Below the pieces are notes generated by a model that saw nothing but the letters and a program-made list of their open reading frames with translations, did not search any database and had not been told where the DNA came from. Below are positions 5,704-62,876 of a DNA stretch of 64,000 bases, in pieces. The DNA lies in the IMG/VR virus record IMGVR_UViG_3300020045_007949, positions 10,013 through 74,012 of that record; one strand, written 5' to 3'. The position numbers were made by a program, and so were the translations under genes. Position 1 is the first letter of the stretch, and the number at the start of each line of letters is the position of its first letter. Origin of the DNA: a virus. Lineage: Duplodnaviria > Caudoviricetes.

Positions 5704-7596
5704 ATGAAAAAATATATGCTTGAACTTGTGAAAAACAAGGCTTTAAAAATAGTTTATTTATTATTCTTCTCAATAGGAGTTTTTGCTCAGAAAACAGATA
5801 TTTTAACAGCAGATTCAACAGGAAATGTTTTTGTAGTTTTTCAAAAAAACGATTCAGTTGCAGTTGTTTTTCGTGGAAAACACACCGCATTTACTACTGA
5901 CCAAATATTCGCCAAGAATCTAAGTGCTTTTGATTTAAAGTTTGAGGGGTTTTCTAAGTTTAAGGTCAAGAAAAATGAGAGCGATTTAGGAGAGATTATT
6001 TATCCTCCTGATATTATTACACCTCCTGACACCACTAATCCACCAAGCGAGGAAACTGTCGCATTTCCAATTGAAGTCAATTATTCTAACCCACGTTATT
6101 GGATAGAGTCATATACTTGGTCAAAAGTTCCTTCAAGTAAGAATATTATCAAAGGAATGAATGGTTACGACTTCGCACCAATAGTATCTAATCAAAACAG
6201 CAAGTACGAATACGGTGAGTGGAATCAACAATACATTTCGATTGGTCAGAAAGATACTTGGAATGACAATGGAAAGTATTTCTTAAAACCAAAAGGATAT
6301 AAAACTGATACTAAAACACATTTGTGGGATTTTGACTTAAAATTCCCCGATTTCTCCCTTCCTAAAGGCAAGATTGTAGTTATTCAAGCTACACCTAAAA
6401 GAGAGATTGGAGTGCATAATTACCTTAAAAAAGGTGTAAGCTATGTAAAGGATAAACAAGGGTCACAAGGCTATACTTTCGTTTCCGATGGATGGCTAAT
6501 TGACTTAGGTTGCCCTCCTGCTTACGATAGCCGACCAAATGCTAAGGAAATCTTTGATAATTGGTGTTCGGAAGTTGATGGAGATAAATTACTACAATCC
6601 TTTATTAATAACGTTTACTACCCAAATAGATATAATGGCTACGTTATGTTGAATTGGGAACACGTAGGTCACAAGTGGAATGTAAGAAATGATAAAATCA
6701 TGCGATGCTTAGAATACTGGCAAGCACATGAACACACCGCTAAAATGGCATTATGGACTGTTTCGGGAGTTTCTATGGGAAAGCCAGTCTTTCAAGGTTT
6801 AGGTATAGATTTTTCAGATGCACTTAACTTTAATGGAACTATCGAAGAGTTTAGAAATAAATTTGGAAATAATATTACAGTCGATGACTCATACTCAAAA
6901 TATGTAGAAATTAGTCAAGTTGGTGGCTACATGAATTATCCAATCGACGATGGAGTTGTTCACCACTATCTATTTGAATACCTTCTTAACAAGAAATTTT
7001 ACCCAAACAAACAAGTATTAGTTACAGCTTGGTTTGACCAAGAATTAATTAACACCTTTGATTTAGGCAGGGTAAAGGTAGAAAGCGTTGATGGAACTTA
7101 TTTTGCACAAGTAAAGCCCAAAACATTCCCAAGCATTACTTTTAATTGGGGTGTTTGGTCAATGCTTGGAGATGGAATAGATTTATGGTCAGACCCGAAT
7201 TATTGGACAGATGATAAAAGATATTGGGGTTGGGGTGCAGTTGATATAAACGGAAAAGAGCTTGCAATGAAACACGACGAAGTAGGTGCTAAATATCCTT
7301 CACAAAGCATGAAATCCATTGATTGGTTAATGGCAGGAGTTTGGTCAATGAGTGAGAACAAAGATATTATCGAATATAGTTCTGAGTGGAAATTTATAAC
7401 TCTTCCTACAAAATCATATCACGAAAAATCAGTTTTAATAGCTTACAAGATTAAGGGAAACGAAGTTTTAGTTCTTGGATTTGATGGATTCTGCAATCCT
7501 GATGAAGTAAAAGAACATAAATTCGATATTAATGGAAAAGGATATAAAATTAAAACACACGGTAGATTTACAAGTGTTATGAGAATGAATTTATGA
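5704..7596 (+). CDS. Secreted 630-aa protein, possibly a glycoside-hydrolase-like TIM barrel
   Basis: Signal-peptide-like N-terminus (LLFFSIGVFA/QK), Pro/Thr linker (PPDIITPPDTTNPP), Trp/Tyr-rich body with a YVMLNWEH motif. Confidence 0.55.
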   Translation: MKKYMLELVKNKALKIVYLLFFSIGVFAQKTDILTADSTGNVFVVFQKNDSVAVVFRGKHTAFTTDQIFAKNLSAFDLKFEGFSKFKVKKNESDLGEIIYPPDIITPPDTTNPPSEETVAFPIEVNYSNPRYWIESYTWSKVPSSKNIIKGMNGYDFAPIVSNQNSKYEYGEWNQQYISIGQKDTWNDNGKYFLKPKGYKTDTKTHLWDFDLKFPDFSLPKGKIVVIQATPKREIGVHNYLKKGVSYVKDKQGSQGYTFVSDGWLIDLGCPPAYDSRPNAKEIFDNWCSEVDGDKLLQSFINNVYYPNRYNGYVMLNWEHVGHKWNVRNDKIMRCLEYWQAHEHTAKMALWTVSGVSMGKPVFQGLGIDFSDALNFNGTIEEFRNKFGNNITVDDSYSKYVEISQVGGYMNYPIDDGVVHHYLFEYLLNKKFYPNKQVLVTAWFDQELINTFDLGRVKVESVDGTYFAQVKPKTFPSITFNWGVWSMLGDGIDLWSDPNYWTDDKRYWGWGAVDINGKELAMKHDEVGAKYPSQSMKSIDWLMAGVWSMSENKDIIEYSSEWKFITLPTKSYHEKSVLIAYKIKGNEVLVLGFDGFCNPDEVKEHKFDINGKGYKIKTHGRFTSVMRMNL

Positions 7597-17299: not shown

Positions 17300-17375
17300 C
17301 TATCGGTGGAGGAGTCAGCCCGTCCTCGCCTGTCTTGGACACAGGAGTTCGCAAGTTGGAATCTTGCTCGATAGA
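17300..17375 (+). tRNA. tRNA-Pro(TGG)
   Basis: CTATCGG/TCGATAG acceptor, GAGG/CCTC D-stem, CCTGT-CTTGGAC-ACAGG anticodon arm, GCAAG-TTGGAAT-CTTGC T-arm; D- and T-loops are atypical. Confidence 0.75.
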
Positions 17376-17431
17376 CGATTAAGACTGTTATTAATTCATA
17401 GGTCGTGTGTAGATGCGTAGAATTAAATTAT

Positions 17432-17503
17432 TTCGGATTGTTGTAATGGTTAGCAAATTTGTTTTTGAAGCAAATAGTTGGGGTTCAAATCCCTAATCCG
17501 AAT
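17432..17503 (+). tRNA. tRNA-Gln(TTG)
   Basis: TTCGGAT/ATCCGAA acceptor, TTTGT-TTTTGAA-GCAAA anticodon arm, TGGGG-TTCAAAT-CCCTA T-arm. Confidence 0.8.
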
Positions 17504-17505
17504 CT

Positions 17506-17573
17506 AAGGCGTAGTTTAATTAAAACGACTTTTATGGGGAGAGTTGATATAGGTGAGAATCCTGTCTCTTTTA
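17506..17573 (+). pseudogene. Degenerate tRNA, Pro(TGG)-like
   Basis: GTTT/AAAC D-stem, ACTTT-TATGGGG-AGAGT arm (A33 instead of U33), ATAGG-TGAGAAT-CCTGT T-arm; the acceptor stem has two mismatches. Confidence 0.5.
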
Positions 17574-17576
17574 CAT

Positions 17577-17648
17577 GGTGTTATTACGCTAAAGGTAGGC
17601 GGATAGATTGTGAATCTATTGGTAACGGTTCGACCCCGTTATAATACC
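17577..17648 (+). tRNA. tRNA-His(GTG)
   Basis: G-1 and C73, ATAGA-TTGTGAA-TCTAT anticodon arm, AACGG-TTCGACC-CCGTT T-arm. Confidence 0.9.
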
Positions 17649-17654
17649 CTAAAA

Positions 17655-17729
17655 GGCGATATGATGCAAATGGAAGACATAGGATACTTAGAATATCCTT
17701 TTTTAAAGGTTCAAATCCTTTTATCGTCA
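17655..17729 (+). tRNA. tRNA-Leu(TAG) lacking the long variable arm
   Basis: GGCGATA/TATCGTC acceptor, GGATA-CTTAGAA-TATCC anticodon arm, variable region only TTTTTT, AAAGG-TTCAAAT-CCTTT T-arm. Confidence 0.8.
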
Positions 17730-17730
17730 C

Positions 17731-17804
17731 AATTTTATAGTTTAACGGAAAAACAGCCAAATACGAATTGGCAGACGATTGTTCGATTCAGTCTAAAATT
17801 ACCA
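17731..17804 (+). tRNA. tRNA-Arg(ACG)
   Basis: AATTTTA/TAAAATT acceptor, GCCAA-ATACGAA-TTGGC anticodon arm, encoded ACCA 3' end. Confidence 0.85.
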
Positions 17805-53860: not shown

Positions 53861-55095
53861 CTAAATCGGTTTATATGTAACTGTTTTAACTTCTTTCATT
53901 TCCGTAAACTCTAAATTTACGTAACAATCGGAATATCCCATAGACTCTGAAAACACATTTGATATGTGCCTAATGCCAAGAAGTACATCAAATACTTTAA
54001 TTACTGTGACGGAAGTTTCGTACCATCTATGAGTATCAACAAGTAATCCACTCGCAACTGTATTGTAATACATAAACTCAAACTCAGGCAGTGCTTCAAT
54101 TAAGTCCTCTTCCTAATCACCAGTATTATGTATCTTTTTTGATTTCAAGACAACCAATAAGTCATCAAAATTATTTATTTCCATCTTCTTTAATTAGTTT
54201 AATATAATATTCTAATAATTTTACTCCAACATTTCTGTTCTTAATAGTTGACCTGCTATAATCTATTTCAATAGCCACGCCATCTGCTTCAAATCTTACT
54301 CCTGATTTCGGAATACCGAAAGTCATATTACCTGCTTCTTCGGGAATACTTTTTACAGTAAATTCTACTCCGTATATTTCCATTATTGATAATCATTCTG
54401 AACCAAGTGGCAGTTTACATCTATTACACCAATCATAACCTCCATCCCCTAAGTTTGGTGGATACAATTTGGGTTCTTTACATTTACAGGTTATAAAATT
54501 ATTTTCAAAATCAAATTCTCCACGCTCGTCTTTTATTTCTTCTAAATTCATTTCCGTCGATTTATAATTGTATCTTTATGTACGTAACATCTAAATTCTT
54601 CACTGTAAGAATAATCTTTATAATCATTCTCCATGCGACTCGCTATGCCTTCAATTTGTTCGCTTATGCTCCACAATTTTACGTTGTCTTTTCGAGAAAT
54701 ATACAAACTTCTTGAAACATCAAGTCGTCTAAGAAGTTTGTATATAATCTTTAAGAAGAGTATGTTGATATACTTTACCAAATCCCAAGCCCTCCTACCA
54801 CTCCAAATTCTGAATCTCTTTCTAAATCTGAGGAGTCTATAATGTCATCGAGGCACGCTTTAATATGCGTCAGGTCTAATCCGTCAGCGAAAGGCTCATC
54901 AACGATTATCGCATATTTCACTCCATCGTCTTCATAAGAACTTCCGAATTGTAAATAAGAAACTCCATCGACGAAATTTTGAAGAATAGAGTTAATATAA
55001 ACTCCCATGTCCTCCCAATAATCTTCAAGAACTTCTGAACTTGCTTTCTTAATTTTGTAGCCAATACCATAGTTGGCAGTGTAATCGACGCTCAA
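53861..55095 (-). other. Small hypothetical CDSs (53861-54073, 54171-54383, a short Cys-containing ORF at ~54385-54550, 54548-54781, 54775-55095)
   Basis: ORF track and manual reading. Confidence 0.65.
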
Positions 55096-55169
55096 TGTTT
55101 TATTTGTTTAAATTGTTAAACGATTAATTTCTGTTTCACAGAACGCCTACTGGCTTATTCTCAACAGAC

Positions 55170-56264
55170 TTATATTTGGGTACACTTAACCCTATAATCT
55201 CTTATATTGTAGCTTGAGTTTAAATCTCTATCAATAGATACTCCACAAGATTCACAATTATATACTCTATCAGAAAGTTTTAAATCTTCTTTTTTGTTTC
55301 CACAATTAGAACATAGCTTTGAACTTGCATAATATATAGGTATTTTTATTAACTCCCTATTATACCACAAACACTTGTACTCCAATATTGAAACAAAAGA
55401 ACTCCAAGAAACATCTTGAATACATCTACTTAGGTTTTTATTCCTAATCATATTAGCCATTTTTAAAGTCTCACAACTAATAGATTGATTCTCTCTAATT
55501 AGTTTGTTTGAAACTTGATGGAAAAAGTGTATTTTCTGATTAGTTATTTTTTGATATAACTTTGCAATTTTTATTCTTAGCTTCTCTCTATTCTTTCCGC
55601 CTTTTTTAGTTTTACTAAATTTTCTTTTAAGTCTCCTTAACTTGAATTGATTTCTGATAGAAAATTTATTATTTTCTATAAACTCTCCATCAGATGTAAT
55701 AGCAAAATACTTTAAACCCAAGTCAATGCCAATTTTATTTTCTGACTTAGATATAGTTTTTATCTCGCTATCCTCTATTAAGCATGAAGCCCAATATTTT
55801 CCAGTTTTGTCTTTTGAAAACGAGCATTGCCTTATTTTAAACGACTTTAGTTTTTCGAGATACTTTTCAGAAGTTTTAAACTTGATTAAATTCTTAAAGA
55901 ACAACAATTTTTCGTTTTTTATTTTAATCGACTGTTGAGCCACAAAAGCCTGCTTATCCTTTTTACTCTTAAATTTAGGAAAACCTTTTCCATTAAAAAA
56001 ATTCTTGTAACTCTTATCGACATCCAATGCAGCCTGTCGAATACACTCCACCTTACATCTGCTCAAAAAATCAACTTCCTTTAATATAGTAACCAATTCG
56101 CTCTGCAAATCAAATCCTGATTTATTTATTTTATGATACTTCCACAAATGAGACTTATATTCTAAGCACAAGTTGTAAGCAAATCTATAAGCATTGAAAT
56201 GATTATCTAAAACCTTTTCTTGCTTTTTAGTTGGATACAACCTTATGTTTAGTCTTTTATACAT
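55170..56264 (-). CDS. tnpB: TnpB RNA-guided endonuclease (IS200/IS605-IS607 family)
   Basis: N-terminal RLYPT..Q; RuvC I GIDLG, RuvC II CE, zinc finger CSNC...CESC, RuvC III DRDLN. All three catalytic acids are present. Confidence 0.95.
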   Translation of the reverse strand: MYKRLNIRLYPTKKQEKVLDNHFNAYRFAYNLCLEYKSHLWKYHKINKSGFDLQSELVTILKEVDFLSRCKVECIRQAALDVDKSYKNFFNGKGFPKFKSKKDKQAFVAQQSIKIKNEKLLFFKNLIKFKTSEKYLEKLKSFKIRQCSFSKDKTGKYWASCLIEDSEIKTISKSENKIGIDLGLKYFAITSDGEFIENNKFSIRNQFKLRRLKRKFSKTKKGGKNREKLRIKIAKLYQKITNQKIHFFHQVSNKLIRENQSISCETLKMANMIRNKNLSRCIQDVSWSSFVSILEYKCLWYNRELIKIPIYYASSKLCSNCGNKKEDLKLSDRVYNCESCGVSIDRDLNSSYNIRDYRVKCTQI

Positions 56265-56399
56265 TTATTCAGTAATTATTAATATTGTTCCCGATGGTAA
56301 TTGCTCGTAGTTTACTAATCCTTTTTTAACCCAATTCCAAACAGTTCTGTATGTTACCGAGTTTTGATTAGCATATTCTCTTATTTTTATCTTTTTCAT
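56265..56399 (-). CDS. 44-aa MerR-like HTH (IS607 TnpA N-terminal-like, no recombinase domain)
   Basis: MKKIKIREYANQNSVTYRTVWNWVKKG...QLPSGTILI; abuts the tnpB start; not in the track. Confidence 0.75.
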   Translation of the reverse strand: MKKIKIREYANQNSVTYRTVWNWVKKGLVNYEQLPSGTILIITE

Positions 56400-56450
56400 T
56401 TACAAATATAAGTATATTTTTCTATAAAAACAAATATTTTTCATAATTTT

Positions 56451-57078
56451 TTATTGAATGTTTAATCGTTTTTCCCAATATTGGGTTTCTTGTTCTAAAA
56501 ATTGATTCTTATACTGTTCTTTGCTCATCGAAGTCAAGTGCCATTTTCTGCAATCACATAAATAATAGGTTGGCTTTCTTTTATCACCAACCCTTATATT
56601 TTTCTCCGCTATCTTTTCACAGGCTAACTTAGCTTGAACTGCTGTATTAAAAGATTTCTTCACGCACATAAGTATCCTTCCCAGTTAGTGATTTAAAAAT
56701 CTGCTGCCAAAAATGAATTTTATTTGTAAGCTCTTTGTCAGGAGTTAAGTACCTATGCGTTTCCGTAAATGACTTTTTACTATCTGCGATTGCGAGCGAC
56801 CAATCATCTGAGTATGAAAAGAAAACTTCTTTAGTTTCTAATTCGTAATCAATGGAATGATATTCTTCGTGAATTTCTTCAACTTTCTTAAATCCGAAAT
56901 CCAAAAGATATTTTTCTGAAATTTCTATTGGCTCTACCTCATCAAGCATTAACATTCCGAGAGGTTTTCCATCAGGCAAGTGAGCGTAGATGTGGTCTTG
57001 AAAAATCTTCGCTACTACTATTTGACCAAAGTCTTGTTGATTTAAAATACTTCCGATTGATAATTCTTTGTTTGTCAT
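56451..57078 (-). other. Hypothetical CDSs (56451-56669 with a Y.CDC..WHLTS motif; 56647-57078)
   Basis: ORF track. Confidence 0.7.
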
Positions 57079-57079
57079 A

Positions 57080-57535
57080 TTAGTTGTCTTTTATGTAAAC
57101 TCCGTTCAAAGTTTTACCAGTCCTTTTTGAAATAACATTGTAAGCTACTTCTAAACATTCTACTAAATCGTAACCGTGAGATTTGATAACTGCGTCAGCT
57201 ATTGAGAAAAATTCCCACGCCACATAACTTGGAGAAACGAGGTTTACAAAATCGTAAGGACTAATTACTCCGCAAACTTCTGATTCATATAATTGAGTCT
57301 CTAATTTAATGCCAAGTTGTTTCGCTAAAATAATTACACAAACACAGAAATCACCATTTGAGTCGATAATTTCATCAATATCATTCTTTAACAACGCTCT
57401 CGCTAATTCACCTGTCTCTTCTAAGAATTTAAGATACTGCTTATCTGCGTTCTCAAACTTAATGAGATTTCTCTCTTCTGCCCATGCCTCTACTTTTTGT
57501 ATGAGGTCTTTTAGTTTTTCTTCTCTATTATTCAT
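57080..57535 (-). CDS. MazG-like nucleotide pyrophosphohydrolase
   Basis: KFLEETGELA...EIIDSNGD, C-terminal CLEVAYNVISKRTGK..NGVYIKD. Confidence 0.85.
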   Translation of the reverse strand: MNNREEKLKDLIQKVEAWAEERNLIKFENADKQYLKFLEETGELARALLKNDIDEIIDSNGDFCVCVIILAKQLGIKLETQLYESEVCGVISPYDFVNLVSPSYVAWEFFSIADAVIKSHGYDLVECLEVAYNVISKRTGKTLNGVYIKDN

Positions 57536-58815
57536 AATTGTCTATAAAATATTCTTGTCCGTTTTTGTATTGATTACCATGTTCTTTGTCGAAAACGCCT
57601 CTTTCAAAAGAATCAATAATCTGTTGCTTTTCTTTATCCATTAATTCTATGGCTTTTTCAATAATCCTATAACCTTCTGAACTTTTATCCCAATCAGGAA
57701 ACTCTTCGTTCCACCATTTCGTTAACTCTTCCAAAGCCGTCATAATCCTTTTTTGATTAAATAATTTTCATAATCCATCCAATACTGATGTTTTTGCGGA
57801 GATAACTCCCAATCGAACATATATGCAAGACAAGAACTCAATCTTGTATATTCGCACAGCAGGACAACAGGATGTGCGTTTTCAAGCATTTGTGAGCGAT
57901 AAGGCTCGTCTGCTTGTAATATTAAATCTTTTGCTGTCATAATTTATTTATTTCATTAATAACGTCATTCCAGTATTTACAATCTATATTTTCAATTCCA
58001 ATTTGCTTAATTAAAACTCCTATGCAAGTCAAAGAACATACTTGTGCATATTCAACCCTAAACTCCTCTAATTCTAATTCAGTAAATACGTTAAGATATT
58101 TGTTAAATATTTCCTGAGACTTCTCTTTCGCTGTCATAACTGCACAAATTTAACGCCATCAATTTCTACTACTTCAATCTTTCCTTCTTTTGCAAGGACA
58201 TAAACCCATTGTCGAGATTTACCTATGGATTTTCCGTAAGTACTAAAGGTTACTAATTTTTCAATGTCTATCATGCTAATTTTGTTTTATCAAATGGTTC
58301 ATACATTACAATACCGATAACTTTTTGCATCTTTCCGTTAACAAAATACTTTTTCCAAGCATCAATATCCCCGTCGCCTTCTCCTAATCCGTCTAATACA
58401 ATCAAATCATTTGGATACTTCTTTGAAAACTCTCTCAAATCCTTCTCATGTTCATACCATTTGCACTCCTCTTCGTCTAATAATGCGTGAGCAGTATAAT
58501 CATTTTCACTTGTTAAATGCTCAACTAAAGCATCTTTTGCCATTACACTATATCTTGTTAAATATCCCATTGTTATAATAATTTTACTATATAAGTTGAA
58601 ACTAATAATCCTGTTACTGAGCCTGTCGCAGCACCGAGAGAATAATAAATCCTTTCTGTAAACGTAGAAATCGAAATCCGCTTAATATTCCACGACCACA
58701 CGAGTGAAATCATAAAACCGCACACAAATACACCTATATAAATTCCCTTAGAGATAAAGTATGTGTTAATCGCTACGAAAAACACCTGTACAAAACCTGT
58801 TGTAAATAATTTCAT
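57528..58815 (-). other. Small CDSs (57528-57743, 57740-57940, 57937-58137, a short HTH-like ORF at ~58134-58274, 58271-58570, and 58573-58815 with three TM segments)
   Basis: Coupled - strand ORFs. Confidence 0.7.
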
Positions 58816-59408
58816 TTAGATACGCTTAATTTTTCCCAAGAATCAGCTGGAATAATAATTCTATCTAAGCTACTATTCTCAGAAATTATCATATCCAAAA
58901 GAACTGCGTAATTCGCCAAGTCGAGAACTGAATCTTGAATAGACTCATTGTTAGGAACTTTTCCTTGAAACAGAACTCCGAGCCTTGCAACCTTAGTGGC
59001 TATTAGTGAGAGGCAATTTTGTTCGGGAGTTAATTGGCAAATACTTCCAGCGAGTTTGAAGTTAGATAACGTATCATCGGAAGTAGAGTAATCTTCTCCC
59101 TTGCGAATAATAACTTCTCTTTGTTTTTGTACGAAAGCCTCAAAATGTGCTTCTTGTTTTTCTCTTGTCATAAAACTTGGTCGTTTAATTGCTTTATTTT
59201 TGTTTCTATACTTTTCAATAATATTTATCCAATAGTATCTTACATCTTGAAAATCAAATCCAAATGCAATAGCTTCTTCAATGCAACTCGGAAGTGGAGT
59301 TTCTGTGCAAAATTCATAATCCCAATTCTCTTTAGCCTCAGAACACTCAGACTCATTTAGTTGGTCATAAAAACCAAAATAAATATCTCTTAATTCTTCT
59401 TTTGTCAT
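58812..59408 (-). CDS. DUF1599/Nmad1-like all-alpha NTP-pyrophosphatase-related domain with an N-terminal extension
   Basis: RKGEDY...NF...LIATKVARL...ESIQDSVLDLANYAVL motif. Confidence 0.7.
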   Translation of the reverse strand: MTKEELRDIYFGFYDQLNESECSEAKENWDYEFCTETPLPSCIEEAIAFGFDFQDVRYYWINIIEKYRNKNKAIKRPSFMTREKQEAHFEAFVQKQREVIIRKGEDYSTSDDTLSNFKLAGSICQLTPEQNCLSLIATKVARLGVLFQGKVPNNESIQDSVLDLANYAVLLDMIISENSSLDRIIIPADSWEKLSVSK

Positions 59409-59433
59409 AACGAAGTTATAATATTAAGTTTAG

Positions 59434-59507
59434 TGGAGATTGAGAGAATCGAACCCTCATCGCCTCAGCTTAACCGAAGCACATTGACTATTTTATGCTA
59501 AACCCCC
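59434..59507 (-). tRNA. Atypical tRNA: UAA (Leu) anticodon on an Ala-type acceptor stem
   Basis: GGGGGTT-TA-GCAT AAAATAGTCA ATGT-G-CTTCG GTTAAGC TGAGG-CGAT-GAGGG TTCGATT CTCTC-AATCTCC-A; G3:U70, A73, short variable loop. Confidence 0.8.
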
Positions 59508-59518
59508 TATTTTTTTTT

Positions 59519-59549
59519 CAAAGTTACGAATAAAATTGTCTATTGTCAA
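59519..59549 (-). promoter_or_regulatory. Promoter directly upstream of the atypical tRNA
   Basis: Minus strand reads TTGAC...TAACTTTG, ending 11 nt before G1. Confidence 0.8.
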
Positions 59550-59568
59550 GTGTTTGTTGATTTATTTA

Positions 59569-60037
59569 TCAATATTTATTAAACAATGAGTATAGTGAAA
59601 TTAAATCATCCTTACTAATCAACCTAAACTGCTTTACTACACCAAAACCATTAAGTAGTAATAAAGCGTACTTTTGTGATTTATTATAATTAATATAAAA
59701 GTGATTATCAATACTCAAAGTCCAAAATTCATTTTCAGTGTTCTCATGGTTTTTCTTTATTGGAAATTCGTTTAACCACAATTCTAATTCTGTCATATTG
59801 TATTAGTTTTTATTTATTTTACCAAGAAGCTGGATTTTCATTTTTCTCCATTCTGTTAAACCACTTACAGGTTAAATAAATTACACCTATTAATACAATA
59901 ATCCAACTAAGAGATGCACATTTTATAGCATTAAACCTATGACCAATAGTCCATGTGACTTTATCTAAAACAACAAAGTCTATGTATTGCAAAATATATG
60001 CAAAAAGAAAGCCGATTAAATAGAGTAAAATCTCCAT
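59569..60037 (-). other. Two small CDSs (59569-59796; 59819-60037 membrane protein)
   Basis: ORF track. Confidence 0.65.
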
Positions 60038-62845: not shown

Positions 62846-62876
62846 TTGACAATAGGCAATAATTATTGTACCTTTG
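62846..62876 (+). promoter_or_regulatory. Bacteroidota-type promoter
   Basis: TTGAC...TACCTTTG. Confidence 0.75.

Follow-up and report, generated by a model that had tools for sequence, protein, structure and literature searches.

We describe a bacteriophage tRNA gene that joins the complete acceptor-end determinants of an alanine tRNA to the leucine anticodon UAA. It is read here, tentatively, as a real but optional and drifting phage tRNA of hybrid identity that can be charged by alanyl-tRNA synthetase (AlaRS) and decodes poorly, carried as a tolerated passenger (a "moron") rather than a tuned device. The gene lies in the 64,000-nt stretch of DNA analyzed here (the window), which comprises bases 10013 to 74012 of a 74,012-bp IMG/VR viral contig with a G+C content of 33% and an estimated completeness of 53%.

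The gene is 74 nt long, of type I (short variable loop), and is located on the minus strand at positions 59507..59434, with its 5′ end, G1, at 59507 and the discriminator, A73, at 59434; an earlier preliminary description of the window had left the strand unstated. ARAGORN called it as the sixth of six tRNAs in the window (59433-59507, minus strand), with nine tRNAs on the whole contig. Rfam model RF00005 matched it over the full length of the model (1-71/71) with 42.2 bits (gathering score, 29; E, 1.4e-5). As a tRNA, the gene is far beyond chance. The acceptor stem has 7 bp (G1:C72, G2:C71, G3.U70, G4:C69, G5.U68, U6:A67, and U7:A66) and the T stem has 5 bp, a 7/5 architecture with a normal T arm and the T loop UUCGAUU. 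The D arm consists of a 4-bp stem and a 10-nt loop with AG in place of the usual GG; the missing G18 is the exception among the conserved bases, with U8, A14, U33, and a purine at position 37 all present. The anticodon arm has a 5-bp stem and a 7-nt loop, G-U-UAA-G-C, and the anticodon (positions 34 to 36) occupies 59470..59472 within GUUAAGC on the minus strand. The Leu anticodon UAA and A73 are both present, the variable loop is 4 nt (CGAU), and the long variable arm of type II tRNA-Leu is absent. All 21 stem pairs are kept, the sequence permits an A15:U48 pair, and the 3′ end reads A73 followed by CTA, with no encoded CCA. No open reading frame (ORF) of at least 40 aa overlaps the gene, which is intergenic and separated by 41.6 kb from the tRNA cluster at 17300-17804 (42 kb in the preliminary description). 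Every structural detail listed in that description (acceptor, loops, A73, and the lack of CCA) was borne out by ARAGORN, Rfam, and reading of the sequence.

AlaRS reads G3:U70, aided by A73, G2:C71, and G4:C69, and ignores the anticodon; G3:U70 transplanted into other tRNAs confers alanine acceptance. On the UAA tRNA, the acceptor-end set is complete: G3 (59505, minus strand) and U70 (59437, minus strand) form the wobble pair and are accompanied by A73, G1:C72, G2:C71, and G4:C69. At pairs 1 to 4 and bases 68 to 73, the acceptor is identical to that of a Bacteroidota tRNA-Ala(UGC) (L239). Because the full set is present and AlaRS is indifferent to the anticodon, the UAA tRNA would probably be charged with Ala, possibly with some Leu too, if the RNA matures. 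The Ala acceptor set first noticed on a Leu-UAA tRNA without a long arm is real, and Ala charging stands as an expectation from AlaRS biochemistry. A covariance model (R1), built from both copies of the tRNA (that of the window and that of its homologue L007, below), was searched in 41 Bacteroidota genomes, in which the best host matches were tRNA-Val(UAC) at 47.7 bits and then tRNA-Ala(UGC) at 46 bits, not tRNA-Leu. The host tRNA-Val(UAC) carries G3:C70 together with A73, and 2 of the 10 bases of its anticodon stem are unlike those of the window tRNA. A single C-to-U change at position 70 of this tRNA-Val would create the Ala set, so drift would be a sufficient origin for it. A BLAST search of the UAA tRNA against five Bacteroidota genomes gave nothing useful.

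G.U pairs make up 6 of the 21 stem pairs of the UAA tRNA (3:70, 5:68, 10:25, 28:42, 31:39, and 52:62) and about 24 of about 189 pairs over the nine tRNAs of the contig, as counted from ARAGORN drawings. A G.U pair at a given stem position is roughly a 10 to 25% event in this AT-rich phage. Since such pairs are frequent in its tRNAs, G3:U70 alone is not beyond chance and may be drift; G1:C72, G2:C71, and A73 are common to many tRNAs. The tRNA-His(GUG) gene at 17578-17649 (plus strand) has G3.U70 too, with U2:A71, and is a second non-Ala tRNA with the main AlaRS determinant; its identity is normal, with G-1 at 17577 and C73. Outside the window, the contig contains a normal tRNA-Ala(UGC) with G3.U70, as well as an ARAGORN tRNA with the anticodon ACA ("Cys") at 6061-6132 of the contig (G000, minus strand). 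The latter is perhaps a decayed tRNA, with a C.U mismatch in its acceptor stem and an anticodon stem containing three G.U pairs.

The cloverleaf is the minimum-energy fold of the UAA tRNA (−21.9 kcal/mol; z = −2.3). In this fold, the anticodon arm closes via G26:C44, G32:C38, and U33.G37 to give an 8-bp stem and a 3-nt loop, as had been suggested for G32:C38 from the sequence alone. Among the 261 unique tRNAs gathered, G32 was present in 4, and G32:C38 was present in the window copy and L007 only. From published work on the 32-38 pair, a Watson-Crick pair at this position would be expected to weaken ribosome binding when the anticodon is all A/U. Because G32:C38 pairing shrinks the loop and the anticodon is all A/U, the UAA tRNA is predicted to be a weak decoder.

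The gene sits in a replication/recombination module that encodes a helicase, a primase-helicase, MazG, NinB/NinG-like proteins, and exonucleases. The nearest relatives of the helicase, at 38% identity, are encoded by Cellulophaga phages phi17:2 and phi4:1 and by Bacteroides phages. A conserved phage promoter block lies directly 5′ of the tRNA at 59508..59572 (minus strand), as defined in an alignment of seven relatives (A1); its pattern occurs twice in the window against 0.01 expected. Its parts, all on the minus strand, are TTGACA at 59544-59549, a −7 box, TAACTTTG, at 59519-59526, and an 11-nt A-rich leader at 59508-59518 before G1. The −7 box fits TAnnTTTG, the consensus of the −7 element of Bacteroidota promoters, and the −33 box contains TTG. 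A Bacteroidota host is likely because of the relatives of the helicase and the TAnnTTTG-type promoter.

Conservation of the 60-nt block 5′ of the tRNA extends to all close relatives, and the block recurs elsewhere on the contig. Further copies of the promoter family, 82 to 83% identical over about 60 nt, are found at 62846-62876 of the window (plus strand) and at 2703-2766 of the contig (G000, minus strand); one of the two faces the other way, close to the end of the minus-strand gene block. The consensus promoter reported directly ahead of the tRNA was confirmed. The label "self-promoted" held as far as a promoter is present; the promoter is not private to the tRNA, since it serves the operon in all relatives. 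A trailer of 25 nt with no CCA and no terminator (59409..59433, minus strand) separates A73 from the ATG of the next gene, and no terminator was found after the tRNA. The next gene encodes a 198-aa protein (58812..59408, minus strand; about 200 aa in relatives; PHROG 1485/6802) and is co-transcribed downstream. Upstream, a 75-aa ORF (59569..59796, minus strand) forms the end of the preceding transcription unit, the helicase module. A 364-aa ORF of the phage "transposase" family phrog_506 (55170-56264, minus strand; E, 2e-100) is located 3 kb downstream of the tRNA, and no link between the two was seen.

Comparison of the locus among relatives shows the UAA tRNA to be an optional insert between the operon promoter and the first gene. 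In L042, L044, L036-L041, and L048, the ATG of the 200-aa gene comes no more than about 15 nt after the promoter block, with no tRNA. A small ORF and no tRNA lie between the block and this gene in L005 and L034, and L006 likewise has the same promoter and lacks the UAA tRNA. The tRNA occurs in the window and in L007 only, with identical junctions, which places a single insertion in their common ancestor. L007 (IMG/VR 3300020045_011796) differs from the window tRNA at 6 of 74 positions. In its acceptor, G3 is changed to U with U70 kept, giving U3.U70, and changes of G5 to A and U68 to C give A5.C68. Of the remaining three changes, A18 to G restores GG, and pairing is preserved at the other two, C30 to U and U62 to C. 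L007 shares A73 and the anticodon and variable loops with the window copy, and its minimum-energy fold is not a cloverleaf. Homologues keeping both G3:U70 and UAA were sought, and L007 alone was found, with its UAA loop retained and G3:U70 lost. Farther along, past the tRNA and the first part of the next gene, L007 1571-4510 and window 55001-58584 contain matching segments in different order and orientation, which could reflect mosaic gene order or a chimeric assembly and bears on the trust to be placed in the L007 tRNA sequence.

Identity between the window and L007 is 92% over the tRNA and 84 to 88% over the flanking DNA, with 6 differences against about 9 to 11 expected for these two sequences only, and it is not clear that the tRNA is conserved in excess of its flanks. 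The common ancestor of both copies probably already had G3:U70, with G3 later lost in L007, because U70 is present in both copies and G3 in the window; the Ala set would thus have persisted in the lineage. The 21 intact stem pairs of the window copy and the seven identical anticodon-loop bases hint at some constraint. A blastn search of the 2-kb region and the tRNA against 50,697 phage records found no relative; the sole matches were weak 29-nt ones to the T arm and acceptor of Aeromonas/Proteus phage tRNA-Ala genes. Exact and degenerate D-, anticodon-, and T-arm patterns in IMG/VR returned L007 only, and a pattern with any anticodon and stem covariation returned nothing in metagenome contigs. 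Searches with neighboring genes found many relatives of the locus and no further tRNA among the contigs covered, which were all but that of P0002, an 89% identical neighbor on a 16,961-bp JGI contig.

TTA is the commonest Leu codon of the contig (45% of Leu codons; 38.9 per 1000 codons), in line with the heavy use first noted for the phage's own genes. Its share in close relatives without the tRNA is 41 to 45%, and the carriers do not avoid it. The meaning of the TTA and TTG codons of the window was tested with a helicase alignment that included nine relatives. TTA was opposite Leu in 64 of 81 cells and opposite Ala in 2 of 81, and TTG was opposite Leu in 17 of 27. A reassignment of UUA to Ala was rejected, since TTA aligns with Leu and is not avoided. 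Ala at UUA would mistranslate the Leu codon that the phage itself uses most, and strong, selected miscoding is less likely for that reason. In L050, an 816-bp contig from a relative, the homologue of the 198-aa gene (211-768) matches its recorded product only with TAG read as Gln, a hint that this related phage recodes a stop codon or that the gene was miscalled.

If the UAA tRNA is a tolerated passenger of hybrid identity, it would be transcribed from the conserved Bacteroidota-type promoter as the first element (5′ leader) of an early/replication-module operon, excised by RNase P and a 3′ tRNase, and given its CCA by a host enzyme. AlaRS would charge it via the tRNA-Ala-type acceptor, as established AlaRS rules imply, and the closed G32:C38 loop on an all-A/U anticodon would make decoding weak. 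The net effect would be at most low-level Leu-to-Ala miscoding at UUA/UUG. G3:U70 would have arisen in a G.U-rich, AT-drifting tRNA.

It is possible, although unlikely, that the gene instead encodes a short-arm tRNA-Leu(UAA) that leucyl-tRNA synthetase (LeuRS) charges via A73 and the elbow, that supplies UUA decoding, and whose loop resists a host anticodon nuclease, with G3:U70 incidental and Ala charging minor. The heavy use of TTA would suit such a supply, but relatives with equal TTA use do without the gene. The phage has a second tRNA of this type, with relatives carrying them too: short-variable-loop tRNAs with Leu anticodons and A73 are located at 17655-17730 of the window (UAG, plus strand), at L009 4151-4225 (UAG), and at L056 5254-5403 (CAG and GAG), in a cluster that also has long-arm Leu(CAA) and Leu(UAA) genes. 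These tRNAs, however, have Watson-Crick 3:70 pairs (C:G or U:A) and avoid G:U there. Short-arm tRNA-Leu is known from Streptomyces coelicolor (Fan et al. 2019, PMC6614811), phages, and tRNA arrays and shares with the UAA tRNA a Leu anticodon, a short loop, and A73. In the examples found here, the 3:70 pair is Watson-Crick and the loop is ordinary (C32 and A38), whereas the UAA tRNA has G3:U70, G32, and C38 and lacks G18. The LeuRS of S. coelicolor charges short-arm tRNA-Leu, but among the prokaryotic enzymes compared, only the Streptomyces LeuRS charged both types (PMC6614811). A73 and the possible A15:U48 pair would assist LeuRS; the missing G18, the likeness of the tRNA body to Bacteroidota Val and Ala tRNAs, and a full acceptor-end AlaRS set of the kind known to convert other tRNAs to Ala acceptance weigh against it. 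Evasion of host nucleases has been proposed for phage tRNAs with altered loops (van den Berg et al. 2023, PMC10264068), and these tRNAs resemble the UAA tRNA in being phage-borne with unusual bases flanking the anticodon; they keep their cognate identity, whereas the acceptor of the UAA tRNA points to a different amino acid.

The wider occurrence of Ala-type acceptors with mismatched anticodons was surveyed with a pattern of GGGG at positions 1 to 4, TTAA in the anticodon loop, a T loop, and CTCCA at positions 69 to 73, and matches were confirmed with ARAGORN. Real tRNAs were found in IMG/VR (L055 and L056), in metagenome contigs (among the matches listed), and in 54 stretches of species genomes. 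They include at least 48 unique tRNAs, at least about 28 with G3:U70 and UAA and at least about 10 with the stop-reading anticodon UUA; the survey patterns impose the features that they find, with one control-like scan, so the figures represent recurrence and not enrichment. A looser IMG/VR scan for any A/U triplet after U33 gave Ala-type acceptors with UAU, UUA, AUU, GUU, UCC, and 8-nt loops. Because it yields so many other anticodons, UAA does not appear to be specially enriched among Ala-type acceptors in phages.

The survey also gave tRNA-Ala-like bodies with 5- or 6-nt U/A-rich anticodon loops (L055 103-175, L070 8995-9068, L078 1725-1799, and L056 7684-7844), which could not decode normally. 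In L055, L070, and L078, a plain tRNA-Ala body carries a 5-nt loop on an anticodon stem of the normal 5 bp; the bodies of L055, L070, and L056 lie in phage-type tRNA clusters, and those of L056 adjoin a normal tRNA-Ala(UGC). Such RNAs bear on a further reading, in which the UAA tRNA would be a non-decoding tRNA-shaped RNA whose charging is irrelevant, either a decoy or sponge for an anticodon nuclease or tRNA-sensing defence or a 5′-end processing or stability element of the downstream mRNA. The occurrence of 5-nt-loop bodies in other phage-type clusters (L055, L070, and L078) would fit this reading, but the likeness of their loops may stem from the search pattern. It is also consistent with an anticodon arm that can collapse to an 8-bp stem and 3-nt loop, with a G32:C38 pair that is unique among the 261 tRNAs and identical in both copies, with an intact lower half in L007 where the acceptor is mispaired, and with the position of the RNA as the 5′ leader of an mRNA. 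The relatives, however, express the same operon without the tRNA. No aminoacyl-tRNA synthetase, tRNA ligase, CCA enzyme, anticodon nuclease, or tRNA sensor was seen in the window, and no target is known for a Leu-UAA-specific nuclease in Bacteroidota. We consider a non-decoding role quite unlikely.

Transposase genes adjoin some of the surveyed tRNAs. A DDE_Tnp_1 gene lies next to a G3:U70/A73 UAA short-arm tRNA in L104, L110, L121, L196, L201, and L230, and an IS1595 gene lies next to an Ala-type/UAA short-arm tRNA in L065, L091, and L140; the sources are Dehalococcoidia metagenome-assembled genomes (MAGs) and metagenome contigs, and the two transposase families are unrelated. These tRNAs look like recurrent insertion-sequence cargo, and the recurrence of the Ala-type acceptor with UAA on other mobile elements could reflect selection rather than drift. 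Taken further, selection would have favored Ala-accepting UAA tRNAs as cargo that recurs on mobile elements and deliberately disturbs UUA/UUG decoding in the cells entered; this phage lineage, phage tRNA clusters elsewhere, and insertion sequences from two or more transposase families would be the carriers, with the window tRNA a working member and G32:C38 tuning the dose. To this general form of selection we assign a low probability.

A programmed, selected device, as proposed in the preliminary description, is unlikely. By placing Ala at UUA/UUG, it would harm the proteins of the host or remodel the proteome of the infected cell. A full Ala set on a UAA anticodon, directly behind a strong conserved promoter, is what such a device would have; the mismatch recurs on a phage tRNA cluster (L055) and on insertion sequences (DDE_Tnp_1 and IS1595), and G3:U70 allo-tRNAs insert Ala in Escherichia coli (PMC5389517). 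The phage's own genes, however, would be hit hardest, with TTA, at 3.9% of all codons, neither avoided nor changed in meaning from Leu. Most relatives lack the gene, its sole homologue, L007, is damaged, the loop is predicted to decode poorly, and the Ala-type acceptors of IMG/VR carry many anticodons with no enrichment of UAA. With a gene that is optional, a homologue that is mispaired, conservation close to that of the flanks, common G.U pairs, and no codon response, the proposal of programmed mistranslation or host takeover is not supported.

The suggestion of a minimal tmRNA-like acceptor was rejected, as ARAGORN found no tmRNA among the nine tRNA genes of the contig, the arms and anticodon are ordinary, and a full anticodon arm is present; an attP fragment was ruled out, since the tRNA is complete and inside an operon. 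The tRNA-like domain of tmRNA shares with the UAA tRNA a G3:U70 alanine acceptor and the property of not decoding as tRNA-Ala, but it lacks an anticodon arm and is joined to a tag reading frame, whereas the UAA tRNA has all four arms and a 7-nt anticodon loop.

Natural tRNAs with disagreeing identity and anticodon are a kind already known, to which the UAA tRNA adds. Allo-tRNAs (Mukai et al. 2017, PMC5389517) likewise combine a natural G3:U70 acceptor with the anticodon of another amino acid or stop, and the reported anticodons include ones that read UUA/UUG and ones that read the stop codon UAA. With the amber anticodon swapped in, three G3:U70 allo-tRNAs were efficient at translating the amber codon in E. 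coli, and such tRNAs are reported to insert alanine (PMC5389517). The branches of allo-tRNAs are 8/4 or 9/3 (acceptor/T), their variable arm is long, and they occur in bacteria such as Acidobacteria (PMC5389517), whereas the UAA tRNA is phage-borne and has the canonical 7/5 architecture, a short variable loop, and an unusual G32:C38 loop. The same AlaRS logic, with Ala at non-Ala codons, applies to mistranslating G3:U70 tRNAs and tRNA-Ala anticodon variants (PMC5389508, PMC10543346, and PMC12084884), but those are spontaneous, population, or laboratory variants of the cell's own tRNAs in yeast and human, and the UAA tRNA is a free-standing phage gene. A 2024 review of mistranslating tRNAs (PMC11415595) includes no phage-encoded tRNA that combines Ala identity with a Leu anticodon, and full-text literature searches found none.

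If the UAA tRNA is alanylated and decodes, it would represent virus-borne natural miscoding, deliberate or tolerated, at a very common sense codon, and the tolerance of translation for mismatched identity could be studied with it in a simple system. If LeuRS charges it instead, it would show that a complete set of AlaRS determinants does not always prevail in vivo. Either outcome bears on how strictly acceptor-stem identity rules are policed on mobile DNA. One intact and one damaged copy make this a lead, not a system.

Two further groups of tRNAs were observed in the survey. The Ala-type acceptor occurs with the anticodon UUA and an encoded CCA on metagenome contigs L074 (3 copies), L117 (3 copies), and L151, L156, and L164 (2 copies each), and with the anticodon UUA also in L064, L094, L144, L170, and L176. 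These may be alanine-inserting ochre suppressors, reading the stop codon UAA, in some organism or element. G3:U70/A73 UAA tRNAs with an odd loop (C at position 37) are present in L088, L191, L204, L209 (two copies), and L216; L088 is a metagenome contig, and the others are contigs of Peribacteria and Gracilibacteria MAGs.
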